From NCBI GenBank assembly GCA_031386685.1, contig JANNCQ010000067.1, positions 71 through 64,070 on the forward strand: a stretch of DNA of 64,000 bases. Reading direction: 5' to 3'. The position numbers and the translations under genes were made by a program. Each line of letters starts with the position of its first letter. Within the stretch, counting starts at the first letter, position 1. Below the pieces are notes generated by a model, which saw only the letters and a program-made list of their open reading frames with translations, had not been told where the DNA came from and made no database searches. Below, piece by piece: positions 16,060 through 62,488 of this stretch. Source of the stretch: Candidatus Altimarinota bacterium (GTDB lineage Bacteria > Patescibacteriota > Gracilibacteria > BD1-5 > UBA2023).

Positions 16060-16069
16060 CTTAAAAGTA

Positions 16070-16738
16070 TCACTTTACAAATGTGGAGCATTCGATAGAG
16101 CTCTTCTTTTCGTAAGCGTCAGAAACTGCGAGTATAAGATTATACAGATAATTATAAAACTTCGATTTTCCTGCATGGTTTTCCAAAAGTTTACTTACTT
16201 TCTGCAAATACTCAATAAATGAAATATTCCCGCTATGAAAACTATTAAGTGCATCATTCATAAGTTTGAAATCCCCTGTTTGATTTCCTTGAGAATCATA
16301 GGCGAGCAGGATAGACTTATTATCAGCCATAAGTCTTCGTAATTCGACCTCAGGAGAAGACGAGCTCAGTCACTTTTGAAATAATTCACAAATATACATC
16401 ATAGGGATAAATGTATCTATTCATTGATAATCATATATTTCCTTCCCACTCCCCGATTTTATATATTTCTCAATTATACTGTACTGCGACTTATAATTTT
16501 TATATGAAGCATCATAGTCATTCCCCATCTTTATGGCATCAAAATCTCATCTTCAAAATTTATTACCCATATCTTCCTCCCGCCTTCATGATAAAGTAAG
16601 ATTAGGATTATTAGAAGAGTCATCTTTTTTCAAATCTTCTAGCACCTTTTTCTGGTTTTGAAGATAAAATCAATAGTATACAAACAAAAGGCATACAAAA
16701 ACCAGTAAGAAAACTATTGAAGTAGATTTATTATTCAT
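16070..16738 (-). CDS. membrane-anchored hypothetical protein
   Basis: N-terminal transmembrane segment MNNKSTSIVFLLVFVCLLFVYY. 222 aa. Starts 6 bp after the HxsA stop. Contains track ORF 16070..16330. Confidence 0.55.
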
Positions 16739-16744
16739 AATATT

Positions 16745-17530
16745 TTAGTAAGCAGCATGACTTCCATGACTTCCATGACTTCCATGTGTCTGATTTCCAT
16801 GACCTATAGCAGACGGAGAAACAGGATTTAAATACGATACAGGAGGACTATAGTTCAGATGTCAATTCCTAGAATCATCGAGAGGTGCTGCTCCTAAATT
16901 CTGATATACAGTTCATGCATTTGCATGACAACTTTGATCTATTGTAGATATGAGTTCGGTTCAAGGCCATGGCGAGGTAGGAGTTCATGCTGTAGTATCA
17001 ACCCCTGGAACCACACAATTTGCAGAAACTGCATAGCCACTTACTAGACCATAATCATCAGCAGCATTCACATGCCTTACAGTTCATACATCACTTACTC
17101 AAACATCTGCAGTTACGAATCGGCCATTAAGTGCTTGATTGACATGATTTGCCGTAGCTGTACCAGCAACATAGTATGTGGGACTATTCCCATGGCCTCA
17201 GCCACTCACTGGATCACACACCCAGGTCCATGGATCATCCCAATAACAGTTTTCTACATAGTTATTGTTCCCATGTCCAATTTGAGCAACTCCTGGCGTA
17301 TTGGTTCAAGATATCCAAGCATTTGCATCACTCGTAGGAAGTATATTTGCAATTCCCATAGTCATCATAGTGATTTTGAGTATATCCTCCTTAGTGATCT
17401 TACCACTCTCGTCAGAAAGAAAACCTTGTAATTTTTTTCTGAATTTATGTATGATTTTTTTCTTTTTTTCTTGCATGATTGACGAAAATATTGAAAATAT
17501 TTCAGTAGCCACTATACTCCATTTTCTCAT
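16745..17530 (-). CDS. hxsA: His-Xaa-Ser repeat protein (HxsA-like putative radical SAM substrate)
   Basis: The C-terminus reads IGHGNQTHGSHGSHGSHAAY-stop (plus-strand CATGACTTC repeats at 16757-16790). Two more GHGN motifs lie upstream. There are eight in-frame TGA codons. The true start may be the internal MQEKKKK. Confidence 0.75.
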
Positions 17531-55829: not shown

Positions 55830-55859
55830 AAAAAACTCGTCCATTCGGACGAGTTTTTT
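55830..55859 (-). terminator. terminator closing the ribosomal-protein block
   Basis: AAAAAACTCGTCC-ATTC-GGACGAGTTTTTT perfect hairpin. Confidence 0.7.
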
Positions 55860-55919: not shown

Positions 55920-56156
55920 TTACGCACGTATCTTCGTCGGAGTGACACTTCGTCCAGTACGGACAGAATATACCTTCTTTCCTTTGTACTCTCCAGTGAT
56001 CGGAGAAGCGAAGTGAGAAAGTGCTACTGCCTTACCTTCAGTATTATACTGGAGTGAGACACCGTCTTTGAGGCGTTTTGCATTGAGGCGCACCCATGCT
56101 GAGTAGCGTCTTTTTCCGCGGACTTTCGAGAGTTGCTGTGGAGGAGAGATAGTCAT
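55920..56156 (-). CDS. small basic protein (possible ribosomal protein, family not recognised)
   Basis: Track ORF of 78 aa, Lys/Arg-rich. It follows rpmA, is preceded by the same repeat module, and is followed by a terminator. Confidence 0.45.
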   Translation of the reverse strand: MTISPPQQLSKVRGKRRYSAWVRLNAKRLKDGVSLQYNTEGKAVALSHFASPITGEYKGKKVYSVRTGRSVTPTKIRA

Positions 56157-56251
56157 ATAAGAGGAGATTTTAGATTTTAGATTTATGATTTATGATTCGA
56201 TACAGTTTCATTCTAGAATCTGTAATCTCGAATCTGTAATCAAGAGAAGCT
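56157..56251 (-). repeat. intercistronic repeat module 1 (rpmA to small basic gene)
   Basis: Sense strand: TTACAGATTCGAGATTACAGATTCTAGAATGAAAC, then degenerate AATC(A/T)TAA/AATCTAA heptads ending 9 nt before ATG. Confidence 0.85.
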
Positions 56252-56524
56252 CTAGGCAACGGAAACATAGATGTCACGATACGTACGTCCATCGAATCGG
56301 ACACGGCGCTTCTCTTGGAATGAGACAACTCCATCACGCACAGCGAAGAGAGTAAAGTCTGTTCCCTGTTCTACACCACTTCCAGCCCAGAAAGAATTCC
56401 CTCTCTGACGTATGATGATGTTCCCAGAAATAGCAGGCTGACCACCATAGATTTTTACACCGAGTCTTTTGGCTTGTGAGTCACGACCGTTGGTGGTCGA
56501 TCACATTGCTTTTTTATGTGCCAT
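56252..56524 (-). CDS. rpmA: 50S ribosomal protein L27
   Basis: [36 protein letters not shown]. 90 aa. Confidence 0.9.
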
Positions 56525-56622
56525 ACTGTTGAAGTTAGATTATAGATTATAGATTATAGATTATAGATTATAGATCGAGAGTATTCTATTTCTAGAATCT
56601 GTCATCTCGAATCTGTAAACTA
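56525..56622 (-). repeat. intercistronic repeat module 2 (rpsG to rpmA)
   Basis: Core TTACAGATTCGAGATGACAGATTCTAGAAATAGAAT plus five TAATCTA heptads (plus-strand TAGATTA x5). Confidence 0.9.
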
Positions 56623-57078
56623 CTACTTGTTATTCGCGTATCGAGCAAATGCCTTATTGGCTTCTGCCATCTTATAGACATCGAGCTTCTTCTTTACAGC
56701 AACTCCAGTCTCAGTAGCAGCATCGATGAGCTCTTGAGCCAGGAAGTGACAGAAGTCTTTCCCACTTTTCCCACGTGCAGCTCAGAGGATCCAGCGAGTG
56801 GCAAGAGCAAATGAACGACCTGGAGGGACTTCAGTCGGGACTTGGAATATAGCACCACCGACACGCTTTGGACGACATTCAATCTTTGGAGAGACATTAT
56901 CGATAGCTTTGTCGAATACTTCTTCAGGATTCGTATATCCCTTTTGGCGAAGGATATCGAAGGTCGAGTTAATAATCTTCTGTGCGAGGGTTTTCTTTCC
57001 TTCCTTCATGACATAATTGACGAACTTCTTGAGTCGCTCGTTTTGTGTCGAGAATGATACGCTTCCTTTGGTACTCAT
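56623..57078 (-). CDS. rpsG: 30S ribosomal protein S7
   Basis: [42 protein letters not shown]. 151 aa. Confidence 0.92.
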
Positions 57079-57235
57079 AAAATTTATAATTGATTAGAAG
57101 ATGAGAGATGAAGTAGCCTCAGCTATGATCCTACTTCGTGCAACTCGAGGTTTCTGTCATATCGAACGAATGTGAGACATCTTGCCCTTTGACAGGATTC
57201 CTCGCATCCGCCCGAAATGGCAGGATGACACACTA

Positions 57236-57655
57236 TTATTTCTTTGCTTTTGGCTTCTTGGCTCCATAGAGTGAGCGAGACTGACCGCGCTTATCGACTC
57301 CCTGACAATCGAGAAGACCTCGAACGATATGGTAACGTACACCTGGAAGATCCTTCACACGGCCTCAACGAATCATCACGACGGAGTGTTCCTGAAGATT
57401 ATGACCTTCACCTCCAATATAGGAGATGACCTCATATCCATTGGTGAGACGTACCTTCGCTACTTTTCGGAGGGCTGAGTTCGGCTTCTTCGGGGTACTC
57501 GTGTACACCTTGAGACAGACTCCACGTCGCTGAGGAGCAGAGAGAGGAGAGAGAGTCTTTTTGAGGGAGTTCTTATTGAACTGTAGCGCTGGAGATTTGC
57601 TCTTACGAGTAGGATCTTTTCGCTTTTTACGGACAAGTTGATTGATTGTAGTCAT
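57236..57655 (-). CDS. rpsL: 30S ribosomal protein S12
   Basis: [47 protein letters not shown] at 57365-67 is the invariant Gly. Confidence 0.95.
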
Positions 57656-57750
57656 GGAAGTTATTTAGATTTTAGATTTAGGATATTAGATATGAGATTC
57701 GTGACAGTACTATTTCTAGAATCTGTCATCTGGAATCTATAAACTCTATT
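57656..57750 (-). repeat. intercistronic repeat module 3 (rpsI to rpsL)
   Basis: Core TATAGATTCCAGATGACAGATTCTAGAAATAGTAC plus degenerate heptads. Confidence 0.85.
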
Positions 57751-58146
57751 TTAACGTTTAGACCAAGAACCTGCTTTACGAGCCTTATGAAGACCTGGTT
57801 TCTTTCGCTCAACCTTACGTGAGTCACGTGTGAGAAATCCAGCTCCCTTAAGAGTTTTTCTGAGATTCTCATCGACGACGACAAGGGCGCGAGCAACGGC
57901 ATGGCGAATTGCTTGTGCCTGTGCTGACTCGCCTGATCCAGATACTTGGATATCAAAATGGAAAGACTCATACACTCCTGCAGTCTTGAGTGGAGAGTAT
58001 ATCGCAGAGAAAAGATCTGCTCTTTTAATATAGGTTTCGAGGGGCATACCATTAGCAGTATTTGTTCCTTTACCTTTATAGAGACGGATCTCAGCGACTG
58101 CTGTCTTGCGACGACCGACTGCGTATGCGTATTTTGCTTCTGACAT
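57751..58146 (-). CDS. rpsI: 30S ribosomal protein S9
   Basis: Track ORF of 131 aa. GRRKTAVAEIRL...GGESAQAQAIRHAVARAL...RKKPGLHKARK..SKR. Confidence 0.92.
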   Translation of the reverse strand: MSEAKYAYAVGRRKTAVAEIRLYKGKGTNTANGMPLETYIKRADLFSAIYSPLKTAGVYESFHFDIQVSGSGESAQAQAIRHAVARALVVVDENLRKTLKGAGFLTRDSRKVERKKPGLHKARKAGSWSKR

Positions 58147-58169
58147 AAAAAATAAGTGAGTTAGGCGGA

Positions 58170-58601
58170 TTATAGGGTGATAGCTTCAGGCTTCTGTGCT
58201 TCGAAATCATGCGTAGTACCGACGACGAGCTTGAGGCGTTTTGACATCTCATTCGTGAGACGATTTTTCGGGAGCATACCTTCGATCGCATGACGAAGCA
58301 TATGTGTCGGGTGCTTTTTCTTCATTTTACCGAATGGAGTCTCCTTGAGTCCTCCCATGTACTGGGAATGTGTACGATACATCTTCGCTGTTTCTTTTGC
58401 ACCAGTGACAGTGATCTTATCGGCATTGAGGATAATGACATTCGCACCATTATCGATATGTGGAGTATAGTCGACACGATCTCGACCTGAGATCATACGA
58501 GCGATAGAAGTAGCGAGACGACCGAGGTTTTTCCCCTCAGCATCAAGGACGAACCATTTGCGTTCGTTACCGGGAATTGCTTTTGCGACAAGAGTTTTCA
58601 T
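58170..58601 (-). CDS. rplM: 50S ribosomal protein L13
   Basis: Track ORF of 143 aa. WFVLDAEGKNLGRLAT.IA..L.GRD...YTPH.D.G..VI..NA. Confidence 0.92.
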   Translation of the reverse strand: MKTLVAKAIPGNERKWFVLDAEGKNLGRLATSIARMISGRDRVDYTPHIDNGANVIILNADKITVTGAKETAKMYRTHSQYMGGLKETPFGKMKKKHPTHMLRHAIEGMLPKNRLTNEMSKRLKLVVGTTHDFEAQKPEAITL

Positions 58602-58692
58602 GGGAGAGATTTTAGATTACTGATTTGAGATTACTGATTTGAGATTACAGATGGGAGATAGTTCTATTACTAGAATCTGTAATCAATTTGAG
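58602..58692 (-). repeat. intercistronic repeat module 4 (rplQ to rplM), variant
   Basis: Only one ACAGATTCTAG copy. The heptads are replaced by a doubled 14-nt unit (plus-strand GATTACTGATTTGA x2). Confidence 0.75.
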
Positions 58693-59052
58693 TTATACGA
58701 GTTCGATCTTTACAAGCTTAGCATTATCACCATCACGATACTTAATCGGGATGATGCGAGTGTATCCTCCCTTCATCTGGGCATAGTTCTTCGCGAGTGT
58801 GAGTAGAGAGACGCTTGCTTCTTTGGTGAAGAGTTCAGCACCGATCATACGGATTTTATTGTATTCTGTATGAGGTCCTTTCGCAACTTCGATCAATCTA
58901 TGAGCAGCTCACTCCATAGCAAGAGCACGCTTCTCAGTCGTCTCGAGACTCTTATGAGTGAAGAGACTTGTAAGAAGATTTCGGACTACTGCCTTTCGGT
59001 GATTGGTGTCTTTACCATTGAGATGAAGATGTTTTTTGACTCGGTGGCGCAT
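58693..59052 (-). CDS. rplQ: 50S ribosomal protein L17
   Basis: MRHRVKKHLHLNGKDTNHRKAVVRNLLTSLFTHKSLETTEKRA..GGYTRIIPIKYRDGDNA. 119 aa. Confidence 0.9.
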
Positions 59053-59139
59053 GATTTATAGATTTTAGATTTTAGATTTTAGATTTTAGATTCGTGATAG
59101 TTCTATTGCTAGAATCTGTCATCTCGAATATGAATCACT
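59053..59139 (-). repeat. intercistronic repeat module 5 (rpoA to rplQ)
   Basis: Core ATTCGAGATGACAGATTCTAGCAATAGAAC plus five AATCTA heptad copies ending 7 nt before ATG. Confidence 0.9.
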
Positions 59140-60117
59140 TTAGTCGTCTCCAAGAAGTTTGAGACCGCGACCTTTGAGAGCCTCTCTGACTTCTGTCATT
59201 GCCTTCTTTCCGAAACCTTTGATCGAAGAGAGTTTTGCTTCTGTACATTTTGTGAGCTGCTCGATAGAGAGTATATCTCAGTTGACGAGAGCATTGAGTG
59301 TACGCGGTGAGAGTCCCATGATTTCGATCGGAGTATAAGTCTCCTTTTCCAGATCTGCTTTGACTTCTTGTTTCTCACGTTCGATCACTTCACGGATATC
59401 AGAGATGAACTCTCCACCGACTTGTAATTTCTCTTCATTGAAGAGAGAGAAGTATGATTCAAGCATTCGGCTCGAGAACTTCATGACTTCTGAAGGAGAC
59501 ATGACGCCATTAGTTCGGACAGAAATTTCGAGAGAATCAAGAGAAGTGAGCTCACCATAGCGAGTCGTCTTGATTTCATATTTTACATTTTGTACAGGAG
59601 AGAAGTTCGCATCGAGTACGAGAACTTCCACATCTTCTTCTCGTTTCTTAAGATCATCGATAGACACATATCCGACATTTTTCTCGACTCGAAGCTGCAT
59701 AGAGAAATCAAATCCAGCATCAATAGTCGTGATATAACAGTCAGGATTGAGTATCTCGATACCTGTAGGGCACTTGATATCAGCACCAGTGACAATACCT
59801 CCTTTCTTTTTTGTAAGGGTAAGCCATTCAATATCAGTAGAATCTTTTTTGACGACGAGAGTTTTGACATTGAGCATCATATCGAGGACTGATTCACGGA
59901 CACCAGGAAGAGTCGAATATTCATGAGAAACTCAAGCGATCTTCACTCCAGTGACACGAGCACCTGGAATAGAAGAAAGCATAACACGACGAAGAGAGTT
60001 TCCAAGAGTGACAGCATATCCACTAGGAAGAGGTTCAATGACGAAGAGTTCTTCTGTAGCAGAGATGATTTCACGACGAATTTTTGGAACTCCGATGACA
60101 TTATGGAGGATATGCAT
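59140..60117 (-). CDS. rpoA: DNA-directed RNA polymerase subunit alpha
   Basis: [32 protein letters not shown], plus a C-terminal domain with [10 protein letters not shown]. Three track ORFs are joined by TGA. 325 aa. Confidence 0.92.
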
Positions 60118-60162
60118 AGATCGAAGGAGAGGTAAGTAAGAAGAAGCTTGGTATATCAGAGA

Positions 60163-60783
60163 TTATTTTGAGTAGAACTCGACGATACGCTGGACATCGA
60201 TCATTTGGTCGAAGTCACCTTTTTCTGGAAGAGCGGTGACCGTGATAGAAAGTTTTTTTGGATCGACAGTGAGCCAGCGAGAAGCGGTGATCTGAGCGGT
60301 AGCATTTTTCGAAGCAAATGACTGGAACTCTTCTACGAGAGTTTTATAGAGAGGAGATTCTTTCATACGTTCCTTGAGAGTGATGACATCACCGATAGAA
60401 AGCTCATATGAAGGGATATTCACTTTCTTCCCATTAATAAGGAAGTGTGCGTGCCCGACAGTCTGACGAGCCTGCATGATCGTTCGAGCAAAGTTTGCTC
60501 GGAAGATGACATTATCGAATCGAGTCTCGAGAAGCGAAAGCATAGCATCACCCGTAACACCTGATACCTTTACAGCACGATCATAATAACGAGAAAACTG
60601 CTTTTCAGTAAGTCCAAACTGACGTTTTGCAGCTTGCTTCTTACGAAGTTGAACTCCAAATTCAGAAAGCTTTCCAGCACGCTTCACTTTTCTGTTATTA
60701 TTTTCGAGGTTATATTTCTCTACGCCGAAGAGATTGTACCCTTCACGGCGGCAGAGTTTCATTTTAGGTCCAGTGTAACGCAT
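60163..60783 (-). CDS. rpsD: 30S ribosomal protein S4
   Basis: Track ORF of 206 aa. MRYTGPKMKLCRREG..YGVQLREKQK-like region and an S4 domain. Confidence 0.95.
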   Translation of the reverse strand: MRYTGPKMKLCRREGYNLFGVEKYNLENNNRKVKRAGKLSEFGVQLRKKQAAKRQFGLTEKQFSRYYDRAVKVSGVTGDAMLSLLETRFDNVIFRANFARTIMQARQTVGHAHFLINGKKVNIPSYELSIGDVITLKERMKESPLYKTLVEEFQSFASKNATAQITASRWLTVDPKKLSITVTALPEKGDFDQMIDVQRIVEFYSK

Positions 60784-60876
60784 AAATTAATAGATTTTAG
60801 AGTTTAGATTATAGATTTTTGGATCAGAGACTATTCTATTTCTAGAATCTAGCATCTCGAATCTGTGATCTTTTTT
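60784..60876 (-). repeat. intercistronic repeat module 6 (rpsK to rpsD)
   Basis: Core CACAGATTCGAGATGCTAGATTCTAGAAATAGAAT plus four degenerate heptads. Confidence 0.85.
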
Positions 60877-61269
60877 TTAAAGTTTACGAGCCTTACGTTT
60901 GCGGCATCCATTGTGTGGAACAGGAGTGATATCATAGATGCCGATAAGTTCTACTCATGCATTGATGATTCCACGGATTGCTTGTTCACGACCAGCACCG
61001 ATACCCTTCACATAGACATGAGCCTTCTCGACATTATGTAGAGTCTTTGCTTTTCCGACTGCCTGTTCACTCGTAATTTGAGCAGCATATGGTGTTGCTT
61101 CACGAGCACCCTTGAAGCCTGCAGTACCTCAGGTCGACCACGTGAGTACTTGACCTGAGAGATCAGATACGACGACATGAGTATTATTGAGGGTAGCAGT
61201 GATGCTGATGATTGCTTCTGGGACATTTTTACGAGTTTTTTTGGAGCGGCGGAGTGTAGCTTTTGCCAT
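60877..61269 (-). CDS. rpsK: 30S ribosomal protein S11
   Basis: ITATLNNTHVVVSDLSGQVLTWST-G-GTAGFKGAREATPYAAQ..GIGAGREQAIRG. 130 aa. Confidence 0.92.
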
Positions 61270-61361
61270 AAATTTTTAGATTTTAGATTTTAGATTTTAG
61301 ATTTTAGATCTGAGACTGTTCTATTTCTAGAATCTATCATCTCGAATCTATAATCTTATGA
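61270..61361 (-). repeat. intercistronic repeat module 7 (rpsM to rpsK)
   Basis: Core TATAGATTCGAGATGATAGATTCTAGAAATAGAAC plus (ATCTAAA)x4-5 ending 6 nt before ATG. Confidence 0.9.
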
Positions 61362-61727
61362 TTACTTCTTCTTATTCATCACCGTGACGACCTTACCCTT
61401 ACGAGTTCGAGCATTGGTCTTCGTTCTCTGTCCACGTACTGGAAGGCGCTTCTTATGGCGAGATCCTCGATAACATCCGATATCTTGAAGGCGCTTGATA
61501 TTACTTGATACCTCTCGGCGAAGATCACCCTCTATGATATAGAGTTTGAGTTCCTCACGGATTTTATCGAGCTCTCCTTCAGAGAGATCGCCCATCTTCT
61601 TATTCCAAGCGATACCTACCTTTGTAAGGATCTTCTGAGCAAGAGGACGACCGACACCATATATATACATGAGAGAGATTTCTGCATGTTTGCTATCCGG
61701 GAGATTTACTCAAGCGATACGAGCCAT
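61362..61727 (-). CDS. rpsM: 30S ribosomal protein S13
   Basis: MARIA-G-VNLP (TGA at 61710-12 is the invariant Gly) ..[36 protein letters not shown]. Confidence 0.93.
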
Positions 61728-61812
61728 AATAGAAAAGAAATTAGATTTTAGATTTTAGATTTTAGATCCGATACAGTTCTATCTAGAATCTGTAATCTCG
61801 AATCTTGGCTCA
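61728..61812 (-). repeat. intercistronic repeat module 8 (rpmJ to rpsM)
   Basis: Core AGATTCGAGATTACAGATTCTAGATAGAAC plus (ATCTAAA)x3-4. Confidence 0.9.
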
Positions 61813-61926
61813 CTAGCCTTGTCTTTGTTTGTGCTTTGGCTCTTGGCATATCACACGTACGACACCCTTACGACGGATGACGACACACTTATCACAGATT
61901 TTCTTGACGGATGGACGGACTTTCAT
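61813..61926 (-). CDS. rpmJ: 50S ribosomal protein L36
   Basis: [37 protein letters not shown]. 37 aa. Confidence 0.9.
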
Positions 61927-62015
61927 ATGTGGTAGGTTTTAGATTGTAGTTTTATAGATTGGAATCAGGATAGTTCTATTTCTAGAATCTGTAATCTAGA
62001 ATCTCTTATCTAGGT
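61927..62015 (-). repeat. intercistronic repeat module 9 (infA to rpmJ)
   Basis: Core AGATTCTAGATTACAGATTCTAGAAATAGAAC plus three degenerate heptads. Confidence 0.85.
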
Positions 62016-62279
62016 TTATTTCGAGCGATTTTGGTAGACTGGAGCATTGGCATTGGGCTTACGGAAAGTGATACGTCCGCGAGTGAGATCATAGGGAGTG
62101 AGCTCCACTGTGACGGTATCTCAGGGGATAAGGCGGATCATATTTTTCTGCATCTTCCCACTTGCATACGCACGTATGACCATGTTTGAGAAGGCTTCAG
62201 GAAGCTCTACTTCAAAAATGGCTCATGGGAGGGCTTTGAGGACTTTTCCCTCGACTTCGATTTTATCATCTTTCGGCAT
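62016..62279 (-). CDS. infA: translation initiation factor IF-1
   Basis: [55 protein letters not shown]. 87 aa. Confidence 0.92.
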
Positions 62280-62488
62280 ATGGATGCTGAAACGGGGGGA
62301 TTAATTCAAAAATAAGCTCGTGTAGTATATAAAAAAGGGCATATAAAGCAAATGAATTTCGAAAAATCTCTTGCACCCTTCTTATTCTGCTTCTGTAGAG
62401 CCTTTCTTATGAGAAATATATGAGCAAAATATGTAGTCAAAGGTGTTCCTTATTCAATAGACGACATTCAACATTATGATTTTTAATA

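Follow-up and report, generated by a model that had tools for sequence, protein, structure and literature searches.

A heptad-bearing hairpin cassette recurs in the intercistronic spacers of a ribosomal protein operon of a Gracilibacterium

Introduction

How the ribosome finds internal start codons without Shine-Dalgarno pairing is unsettled, and the abundance of heptamers in bacterial intergenic DNA is unexplained. The closest described system is that of the TAACTGA heptamers, direct repeats that precede start codons in marine Beggiatoaceae, Cyanobacteria and some Bacteroidetes (MacGregor 2015, PMC4679880). In most species they occur in two to six copies, in forward orientation and a few nucleotides from the start codon, a ribosome-binding site being rare, and some of them lie at internal sites of ribosomal protein operons; a translational role involving S1, cold-shock protein (Csp) or CsrA-type binders was proposed, though not tested, in that work. 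According to Mrazek (2007), as cited in two later papers (PMC4679880 and PMC4692102), heptamers are the commonest long simple-sequence repeat in most genomes studied, for which slippage was offered as the explanation, and inverted heptamer arrays have been reported in Xanthomonas. Here we describe a cassette of approximately 90 nt, made of a compact stem-loop followed by a leader of tandem heptads, that occupies nine of the twelve intercistronic spacers of a ribosomal protein operon in Candidatus Altimarinota bacterium, a Gracilibacterium (assembly GCA_031386685.1, contig JANNCQ010000067.1, positions 71 to 64,070; this whole stretch of 64,000 nt is called the window below). Judged from the sequences, the cassette may be a Shine-Dalgarno-independent leader for internal initiation with an attached hairpin that insulates or gates it, a reading that we favour, albeit tentatively.

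The cassette resembles the TAACTGA repeats in its tandem 7-nt units, in their forward and start-proximal placement, in the lack of a canonical ribosome-binding site and in its occurrence at internal sites of a ribosomal protein operon. It is of the same kind but of a different family: its unit, AATCTAA or AATCTAT, is free of G whereas TAACTGA contains G, its heptads are almost confined to ribosomal protein spacers and fill most of them, and whereas only one indirect repeat was reported among the TAACTGA sets, which are otherwise direct, the array of the cassette is attached to a conserved hairpin with a 5' arm complementary to the heptads. The host, a Gracilibacterium using genetic code 25, also differs from the TAACTGA hosts. 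With the heptanucleotide repeats of cyanobacteria and xanthomonads, the cassette shares intergenic period-7 arrays, sometimes inverted or in stem-loops, and fast variation between close relatives; those repeats, however, are dispersed genome-wide beside many gene classes and some are G-rich, whereas the cassette heptads are tied to internal ribosomal protein cistrons, contain no G and keep a preferred register with respect to the AUG. Our literature search returned nothing on Gracilibacteria spacers. The initial annotation of this DNA held that no such intercistronic element had been described, which is too strong a statement in view of the MacGregor heptamers, including those in ribosomal protein operons. 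The cassette is rather a lineage-specific hairpin combined with the already-known, functionally unsettled heptamers before start codons, and it occupies most spacers of the operon.

Distribution of the cassette

Region 55920-62279 of the window is a single minus-strand operon with the gene order infA-L36-S13-S11-S4-rpoA-L17-L13-S9-S12-S7-L27-g78, and all nine cassettes (c1 to c9, counted from infA) lie on the minus strand. Copy c1 (infA to rpmJ, L36; 61927..62015; 89 nt; 72.8 bits in the covariance model described below) has degenerate heptads, and c2 (rpmJ to rpsM, S13; 61728..61812; 85 nt; 86.6 bits) has a heptad tail, AAAATCTAAAATCTAAAATCTAATTTCTTTTC, in common with the distant relative L132. 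Within c3 (rpsM to rpsK, S11; 61270..61361; 92 nt; 96.6 bits) the 5' arm spans 61331-61356, TTCTAGAA lies at 61325-61332 and the heptad run at approximately 61274-61309. Copies c4 (rpsK to rpsD, S4; 60784..60876; 93 nt; 79 bits) and c5 (rpoA to rplQ, L17; 59053..59139; 87 nt; 92.6 bits) are followed by c6 (rplQ to rplM, L13; 58602..58692; 91 nt; 65 bits), which has 14-nt double heptads and a perfect 10-bp stem formed by GATTACAGAT and ATCTGTAATC. The remaining copies are c7 (rpsI, S9, to rpsL, S12; 57656..57750; 95 nt; 90.9 bits), c8 (rpsG, S7, to rpmA, L27; 56525..56622; 98 nt; 80.2 bits), in which the heptads are AATCTAT in 5.7 copies, and c9 (rpmA to g78; 56157..56251; 95 nt; 87.8 bits).

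The covariance model was built from twelve copies of the family and was applied, without filters, to the whole window on either strand. It recovered exactly the nine copies (65-97 bits), in agreement with the count given in the initial annotation; the next unrelated match scored 21 bits, and weaker echoes were seen on the opposite strand of the nine sites. Allowing for up to three mismatches, the core ACAGATTCTAGAAATAGAAC gave seven matches in the window against 0.01 expected, and the heptad pattern gave 23 against 0.18 expected, all of them on the minus strand and inside the block. Applied to 194 kb of sequence from relatives, the covariance model gave strong matches that were all in sense orientation and all in ribosomal protein spacers. 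Neither in the 64-kb window nor in these 194 kb were cassettes found dispersed in both orientations, in non-operon DNA or within genes. A pattern scan of metagenomes with the specific core GATKAYAGATTCTAGNAATAGNAY gave no match. The degenerate pattern AGATTCTAGNAATAGNAY retrieved at least 119 stretches in a scan of genome contigs and, among the matches listed, the full core together with the heptads was present only in L023, from the Gracilibacteria.

Anatomy of the cassette

The stem-loop, which carries the conserved apical loop AUUCUAGAAAUAGAA, lies 7-16 nt past the upstream stop codon in most copies and is followed by approximately 40 nt of G-free AAUCUAA heptads. Tandem Repeats Finder reports a period of 7 with 2.9-5.9 copies in all nine cassette spacers, and the arrays, all in sense orientation, stop 3-15 nt short of the AUG. 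The period of 7 is found in both arms, the 5' arm being (NNAGATN)n, as in ACAGATT CGAGATG ACAGATT CTAGAAA, and the 3' arm (AATCTAA)n, with AGAT pairing with ATCT. The architecture described initially is confirmed, with small corrections: the L17-L13 copy contains one ACAGATTC only, and TTCTAGA(A) is shortened in the copies between L36 and S13 and between L27 and g78. The complementarity then pointed out between arm and heptads also stands, although the count in the example given has to be corrected from 20 to 21 of 26 positions. On the other hand, the ten nucleotides that had been regarded as variable are not arbitrary, as 11 of the 12 family copies show complementarity between them and the 5' arm (mean z -2.3).

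The G-free run ahead of the AUG measures 39-44 nt in seven of the nine cassettes. Likewise, the distance from TTCTAG to the AUG is 61-66 nt in seven copies (taken from the second TTCTAG in c1) and 73-74 nt in the other two, and the spacing to the downstream AUG is steadier than that to the upstream stop codon.

A promoter cassette had also been envisaged, in which TTACAG-N18-TAGAAA/T would provide each gene with its own transcription start. There is a loose likeness to the spacing of a -35/-10 pair, and two copies give TCGAGA-16-TAGAAT in a consensus scan, but the -35 candidate matches two of six bases, and in seven of the nine copies the -10 candidate (TAGAAA or TAGAAC) does not end in the invariant T. 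Moreover, promoter-like sites number 16 against 13.9 in shuffled sequences, the genome elsewhere uses canonical TTGACA-17-TATAAT, and relatives have other heptad families with unrelated 5' arms or, at positions matching cassettes of the window, spacers of 20-45 nt devoid of such sequences. These short orthologous spacers argue for co-transcription of the block, and a reiterated promoter is highly improbable. As regards intrinsic terminators, the four terminator-like sites found in a scan are all on the plus strand and none is in a cassette; the cassette stems are A/U-rich and followed by an A-rich tract, contrary to what is expected of such a terminator. A search of Rfam, including its ribosomal protein leaders, gave no match at the gathering threshold. 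Alpha_RBS (RF00140) at the L36-S13 spacer was rejected, its score being 26.3 bits against a threshold of 38 and the aligned identities lying in the coding start of rpsM.

Start regions of ribosomal protein cistrons

Period-7 arrays of at least three copies number 47 in 64.6 kb of ribosomal protein blocks versus 5 in 142.7 kb outside them, and repeats of other periods showed no bias towards these blocks in a scan of the same sequences. A significant period-7 periodicity of A was found in 38 of 99 spacers, where 5 would be expected, and the phase of the heptads relative to the AUG is non-uniform (Rayleigh R 0.51, with orthologous spacers that are not independent).

The composition of start regions was analyzed for 48 ordinary genes of the window and for 124 ribosomal protein spacers from 11 genomes. 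G amounts to 1.7% of the last 30 nt before the ribosomal protein AUGs, compared with 14.8% in the remainder of these spacers, 11% in the last 30 nt before ordinary genes and 19% over the whole window; at positions -20 to -6 it amounts to 0-2%. Ahead of the AUG, the G-free run has a median length of 29 nt in 112 internal ribosomal protein cistrons and of 6 nt in the 48 ordinary genes. Neither a Shine-Dalgarno signal nor a purine peak precedes any gene class in this sample. Position -1 is T in 67% of the ordinary and 86% of the ribosomal protein genes, position -2 is often C, and the last 10 nt before many ribosomal protein AUGs are C/T-rich (CTCCC, TCTCT) and thus resemble an anti-Shine-Dalgarno rather than a Shine-Dalgarno sequence. 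The promoter-proximal infA is without a heptad array, and none was found in relatives at the genes for IF-2, NusB, RNase III, SecY, RNase T, a DEAD helicase, AhpC and NrdD.

Enhancers that are poor in G and rich in A, U and C include the omega sequence of tobacco mosaic virus and S1-dependent leaders. Shine-Dalgarno-independent initiation on unstructured leaders has been described (Scharff 2011, PMC3121790). The cassette has in common with the latter the lack of a Shine-Dalgarno sequence and an open, G-poor or G-free region before the AUG; it differs in its approximately 40 nt of tandem heptads at internal cistrons and in the partly complementary arm upstream.

Relatives and turnover of the spacers

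Relatives were retrieved through homologues of S4, and later of S5, which provided the same operon from ten other genomes with S4 identities of 95-74%. The coding sequence is kept in these relatives and most spacers differ. L120, with 95% S4 identity, has the cassette between rpoA and L17 only, and L023/L254 has it between rpoA and L17 and between L27 and g78; the rpoA-rplQ spacer (c5) is the only position where it is found in the window and in these relatives alike. In the S10/spc operon of the L023/L254 species, copies or variants of the cassette are present at L4-L23, L2-S19, S19-L22, L16-L29, L5-S14, S14-S8 and S5-L15. The presence of the cassette at differing ribosomal protein spacers in relatives indicates that it moves among such spacers. 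Comparison with the orthologous spacers of L023, L120, L121 and L125 reveals replacement of the whole spacer, not interruption, with the last 5-7 nt before the ATG shared, and detected no target-site duplication or flanking direct repeats. In the window, c3 has displaced an S13-S11 hairpin, GAATCTCACCGAAGTGAGATTC with a CGAA loop, that is still present in L023 and L120, and in L121 this hairpin has a variant stem with a paired A-to-G and T-to-C change.

REP/BIME and ERIC sequences, the Correia elements of Neisseria and miniature inverted-repeat transposable elements (MITEs) are short imperfect palindromes that occur in many copies, are co-transcribed and form hairpins affecting mRNA stability or processing; REP/BIME sequences are in addition associated with a RAYT transposase and number hundreds of copies per genome. 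The cassette is likewise a short imperfect palindrome, multi-copy and co-transcribed between genes. Unlike these elements, it shows no target-site duplication, is strictly in sense orientation, replaces whole spacers and has a tandem array as one of its arms, and no copy was found outside ribosomal protein spacers in the approximately 260 kb examined. With respect to terminal inverted repeats, such as a MITE has, the arms are imperfectly complementary (at best at the 21 of 26 positions mentioned above), while one of them is a tandem array. From the sense orientation, the lack of target-site duplication and the replacement of whole spacers in these sequences, a plain MITE or selfish repeat is not supported.

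Many spacers of the relatives are of like design but with other units, namely (CAATTAA)n with a TAATTGT-type arm, (ATTTATA)n with (TAAATGA)n, and (CCTAA..)n with (TTAGG..)n. The same spacer having different heptads from one relative to another (AATCTAA, CAATTAA, ATTTATA and others), the design is kept while the sequence turns over. In L133 a small self-contained hairpin just after many stop codons is followed by a G-poor leader, and the S4-rpoA spacers of relatives are built likewise. The S5-L15 spacer of L130 (3492-3600) has a version with a period of 8, (TYTACAGN)x4 followed by four CTGTAAAA-like units and the ATG, and its TTACAG motif echoes TTACAGATTC of the window cassette. At the head of the S10 operon of L254 (approximately 1560-1600), a run of (TTACTAG/TAACTAA)-type heptads lies directly upstream of a canonical TTGACA-17-TATAAT promoter-like site, so not every heptad array in that species is proximal to a start codon. 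The Logan contigs of L120 and L125 begin, at positions 1-30, within heptad arrays, (AAAATCT)4.3 and (TAACAAT)4.3, respectively; this coincidence of arrays with contig ends in two assemblies suggests that heptad repeats break short-read assemblies of such genomes.

Heptads in other taxa

Three tandem copies of AATCTAA are found in at least 120 metagenome stretches (L134-L253) that belong to many unrelated taxa with G+C contents of 24-68%, and none of the 120 loci listed contains the cassette core or the operon. Among the matches listed, an open reading frame starts within 40 nt past the array in 49 of 112 cases in the forward direction versus 11 of 112 in the reverse one, which is a 4.5-fold bias, and an inverted heptad partner lies upstream of 28 of 130 arrays. 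The genes that follow these arrays appear, from their N-terminal sequences only, to include rpoC, S19, S5 and subunits of ATP synthase.

Predicted folding and proposed function

In the compact hairpin, AGAUUC pairs with GAAUCU and KAYAG with CURUM, and the heptads stay single-stranded. Over the 12 copies, 82% of cells are paired in this fold, and it contains two compensatory pairs (G-C to U-A and C-G to U-A). No part of the family is better conserved than the apical loop, which stands far above the adjacent stem strand: its 15 nt are nearly invariant, and the 3' strand of the stem varies yet remains complementary. All nine copies fold better than shuffled sequences in which the composition of each half is preserved (z -1.5 to -6.7, mean -3.1), the mean z of 45 other spacers under the same shuffles being -2.15, and throughout the clade, intercistronic spacers of at least 55 nt show significant structure (mean z about -2.2). 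In 44 of 54 spacers, pairing between the cognate 5' and 3' halves is better than that between halves combined across unrelated families (mean z -1.26). Minimum free energy folds contain a similar long bulged hairpin in most copies; it is weak (-10 to -23 kcal/mol; z against dinucleotide shuffles of -0.1 to -4.05), its predicted helices of 4-6 bp are split by internal loops, and two of the centroid structures are fully open. Structural support for the hairpin is real but modest.

Structures between cistrons are known to couple translation, as in rpmI-rplT of E. coli and the coat and replicase genes of phage MS2, and the early RNase III sites of phage T7 are processing hairpins. Intercistronic processing is also the role of the plastid intercistronic expression element (IEE; PMC2230500). 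The cassette is similar to all of these in placing between cistrons a structure that could link or separate the expression of neighbours, but it has no sequence relationship with them and its predicted occlusion of the start region is weak and inconsistent. By analogy with T7 early RNase III sites, REP and the IEE, the hairpin might block exonucleases or be cut by an RNase III-type enzyme, and the single-stranded heptads might let endonucleases in, leaving stable mono- or oligocistronic mRNAs. The position of the hairpin shortly after the stop codon is in line with this possibility, as are the hairpins followed by G-poor leaders in distant relatives (L133 and the S4-rpoA spacers), the structure of the longer spacers throughout the clade, and the RNase III gene that lies shortly downstream of the operon in relatives. 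RNase III sites, however, need about 20 bp of largely continuous duplex, and short, interrupted, A/U-rich stems are poor substrates. The cassette stems are short, A/U-rich and broken by 2x2 loops and would therefore be poor RNase III substrates; it is not obvious why equimolar synthesis of ribosomal proteins should require segmental decay, the cassettes keep a steadier distance to the AUG than to the stop codon, and a U-tract is absent. We consider a processing or stability element unlikely.

The loop and/or the heptads might also be bound by one trans-acting RNA-binding protein (a ribosomal protein, S1, or a protein with a cold-shock or KH domain) and act as an operator co-regulating many ribosomal protein cistrons. 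Tandem 7-nt units match the footprint of single-strand binders of the OB-fold (oligonucleotide/oligosaccharide-binding) type. This match, also proposed for the TAACTGA repeats (PMC4679880), would favour an operator, as would the nearly invariant 15-nt loop on a stem of variable yet complementary 3' strand and the fact that a window cassette has replaced a spacer hairpin kept in L023 and L120, and with a variant stem in L121. The unrelated heptads and loops at the same positions in relatives nevertheless argue against one sequence-specific binder throughout the clade, and the conservation of the loop could merely reflect recent copying, so that we regard such an operator as quite improbable.

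The reading as an initiation leader with an attached hairpin views the module as a two-part cis-acting element of the polycistronic ribosomal protein mRNA. The G-free heptads, approximately 40 nt that end 3-15 nt before the AUG, would form the initiation leader of the downstream internal cistron. Being without G and without stable self-structure, they could offer an open landing pad to the 30S subunit, and approximately 40 nt is close to the upstream reach of the 30S initiation complex on mRNA in footprinting work. The pad would possibly be recognized through S1 or single-strand RNA binders of the cold-shock type. The 5' arm would pair locally into the compact hairpin and leave the pad free or, alternatively, would pair with the heptads in shifted registers, whereby the pad would be insulated or gated by upstream translation. 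Recombination or gene conversion would have carried the cassette from spacer to spacer within this lineage, at the expense of older spacers of like design, and the 7-nt unit as such probably reflects the general slippage bias for heptamers. In favour of the leader stand the lack of a Shine-Dalgarno signal and of G before ribosomal protein start codons, the long G-free runs, the density, period and phase of the arrays in ribosomal protein blocks, the lack of arrays at infA and at the eight other genes of relatives, the design kept under turnover, the sense orientation of all strong matches, the forward bias of the arrays in unrelated metagenome contigs and the steady distance from TTCTAG to the AUG; in favour of the hairpin stand the z-scores against shuffles, the better pairing of cognate halves, the complementarity of the variable segment to the arm and the two covarying pairs. 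The anatomy, the confinement to ribosomal protein spacers, the turnover and the significant self-complementarity are observations; from these features we infer that the heptads would act in translation and the hairpin as RNA, with a possible coupling between cistrons. That a similar reading was put forward earlier, though not tested, for the TAACTGA repeats (PMC4679880) also speaks for the leader.

Several observations weigh against the leader and its hairpin. The covariation of the compact hairpin is marginal with 12 copies (0.167 vs. 0.122 in shuffles, with 13 of 500 shuffles reaching the observed score) and with 16 copies (0.145 vs. 0.118, 33 of 500). For the extended hairpin, RNAalifold gives a weak family structure with zero compensatory changes, and it was rejected as a conserved fold. 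Both strands are equally non-random (antisense z -3.8, sense z -3.1), so that an origin of the symmetry at the level of RNA is not separable from one at the level of DNA, that is, of an inverted repeat; folds of the sense strand are 3-12 kcal/mol less stable than those of the antisense strand, which was considered as a sign of selection against structure and rejected as an effect of composition, the z-scores being equal on both strands. The region from -25 to +3 is predicted to be 40-88% unpaired and is occluded by the arm in c3, c5, c7 and c8, hence in about four of nine copies, weakly and inconsistently, and when a terminating ribosome is modelled by masking 12 nt after the stop codon the leader opens only in c5, c7 and c8, which lends coupling no general support. 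Thus, of the proposal in the initial annotation that each module folds into a long bulged hairpin sequestering the start region, the potential to form a hairpin is retained whereas the general sequestration is not, and the compact hairpin with free heptads fits the predictions better than the long one, even if its shuffle control is marginal. Finally, the number of heptads varies between close relatives (four copies of CAATTAA in L123, three in L127), which fits neutral slippage, short spacers of relatives work without arrays of three or more heptads, and orthologous spacers across relatives are statistically non-independent.

Part of this evidence bears equally on a neutral or selfish origin, in which slippage, template switching (for the inverted arrays) and gene conversion would generate the cassettes and selection would filter only their place and orientation, with the G-poor side facing the start codon, the cassette as such having no function. 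Slippage has been offered as the explanation for heptamers as the commonest long simple-sequence repeat (Mrazek 2007, as far as quoted by the citing papers), and fast turnover, with a different spacer at four of five shared cassette positions already at 95% S4 identity, points in the same direction. So do the unequal copy numbers, the equal non-randomness of both strands together with weak covariation, the AATCTAA arrays, some with inverted partners, of many unrelated taxa, and the two Logan contigs (L120, L125) that start inside heptad arrays. A neutral origin accounts less readily for arrays approximately 20 times denser in ribosomal protein blocks than elsewhere, for the sense orientation of all copies, and for a G-free run held at 39-44 nt and a loop-to-AUG distance held at 61-66 nt. 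Moreover, spacers of 90 nt persist in seemingly small genomes (contigs of relatives of 1.1-1.3 Mb), the conservation of the apical loop far exceeds that of the neighbouring stem strand, and the design is retained at given spacers despite sequence change. We judge neutrality to be a serious but minority possibility.

A broader proposal is that tandem G-free heptads would be an alternative signal for ribosome recruitment to internal cistrons in place of the Shine-Dalgarno interaction, each array offering 7-nt binding sites to S1, to a cold-shock-domain protein or to a segment of rRNA, combined with a loop operator by which one factor would co-tune most ribosomal protein cistrons, in replacement of autogenous control with one operator per operon. 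This proposal, which we put forward as a rather unlikely one, would apply to this lineage and might extend to any genome with (AATCTAA)n-type arrays ahead of start codons. With nine near-identical cassettes beside three cassette-free spacers, other heptads at the same sites in sister genomes and a sharply defined G-free length of approximately 40 nt, the operon is a compact natural test. If the heptads are landing pads, they would explain balanced ribosomal protein expression in bacteria of the Gracilibacteria type, would assign a role to repeats of a widespread class and would yield portable Shine-Dalgarno-free intercistronic parts; if they are neutral, they still are a clear case of concerted spacer evolution inside an essential operon.

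Operon organization and neighbouring features

The open reading frames of the operon, like genes throughout the window, remain uninterrupted only when TGA is taken as a sense codon (code 25, Gly); under table 11, rpoA, S13, S11, S12, S7, L17 and L27 are fragmented. Pfam matches in the block identify IF-1, L36, L17, L13, S9, S12, S7 and L27, and S13, S11, S4 and RpoA were identified through gene calls of relatives. A likely operon promoter, TTGCTT-16-TATACT, is read upstream of infA (62324..62351, minus strand) and is kept in L023/L254, L121 and L131. After g78, a terminator-like hairpin with a T-run, AAAAAACTCGTCCGAATGGACGAGTTTTTT (55830..55859, minus strand), marks the end of the operon.

Three spacers are free of the cassette, all on the minus strand. 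The one between S4 and rpoA (60118..60162) has 45 nt, is C/T-rich and differs by one base from the spacer of L023; that between L13 and S9 (58147..58169) has 23 nt, compared with 18-34 nt in all relatives. The third, between S12 and S7 (57079..57235), has 157 nt and contains a different, structured and G-containing sequence followed by a G-free leader of 38 nt. A motif of this spacer, CATAGCTG, recurs in the S12-S7 spacer of L023, L121, L123 and L127, with CATGGCTG in L125; by its position, and by comparison with the str operon of E. coli, the sequence could be an S7 operator.

In an unusual fusion, the operon joins infA-L36-S13-S11-S4-rpoA-L17 to L13-S9, S12-S7 (without fusA-tuf), L27 and g78, and this gene order is kept across the clade (window, L121, L123, L130-L133 and L254). 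The spc operon lies directly upstream of it in L023/L254, and upstream with intervening genes in L130, but not upstream in the window, L121 and L123. The last gene, g78 (55920-56156, minus strand), encodes a conserved basic protein of 78 residues that was found in every relative reaching that position, with 63-81% identity where measured. Searches of Pfam, NCBIfam and PDB sequences gave no significant match for this protein, the best being L32 with E=0.086, and it may be an unrecognised or highly divergent ribosomal protein. No rRNA gene was found in the window or in the loci of relatives examined. Elsewhere in the window, at 16756-16786, the plus strand contains 3.4 perfect tandem copies of the 9-nt repeat CATGACTTC (GGAAGTCAT on the gene strand), which is unrelated to the heptad cassettes and sits 17 nt upstream of a minus-strand open reading frame (16061-16738).

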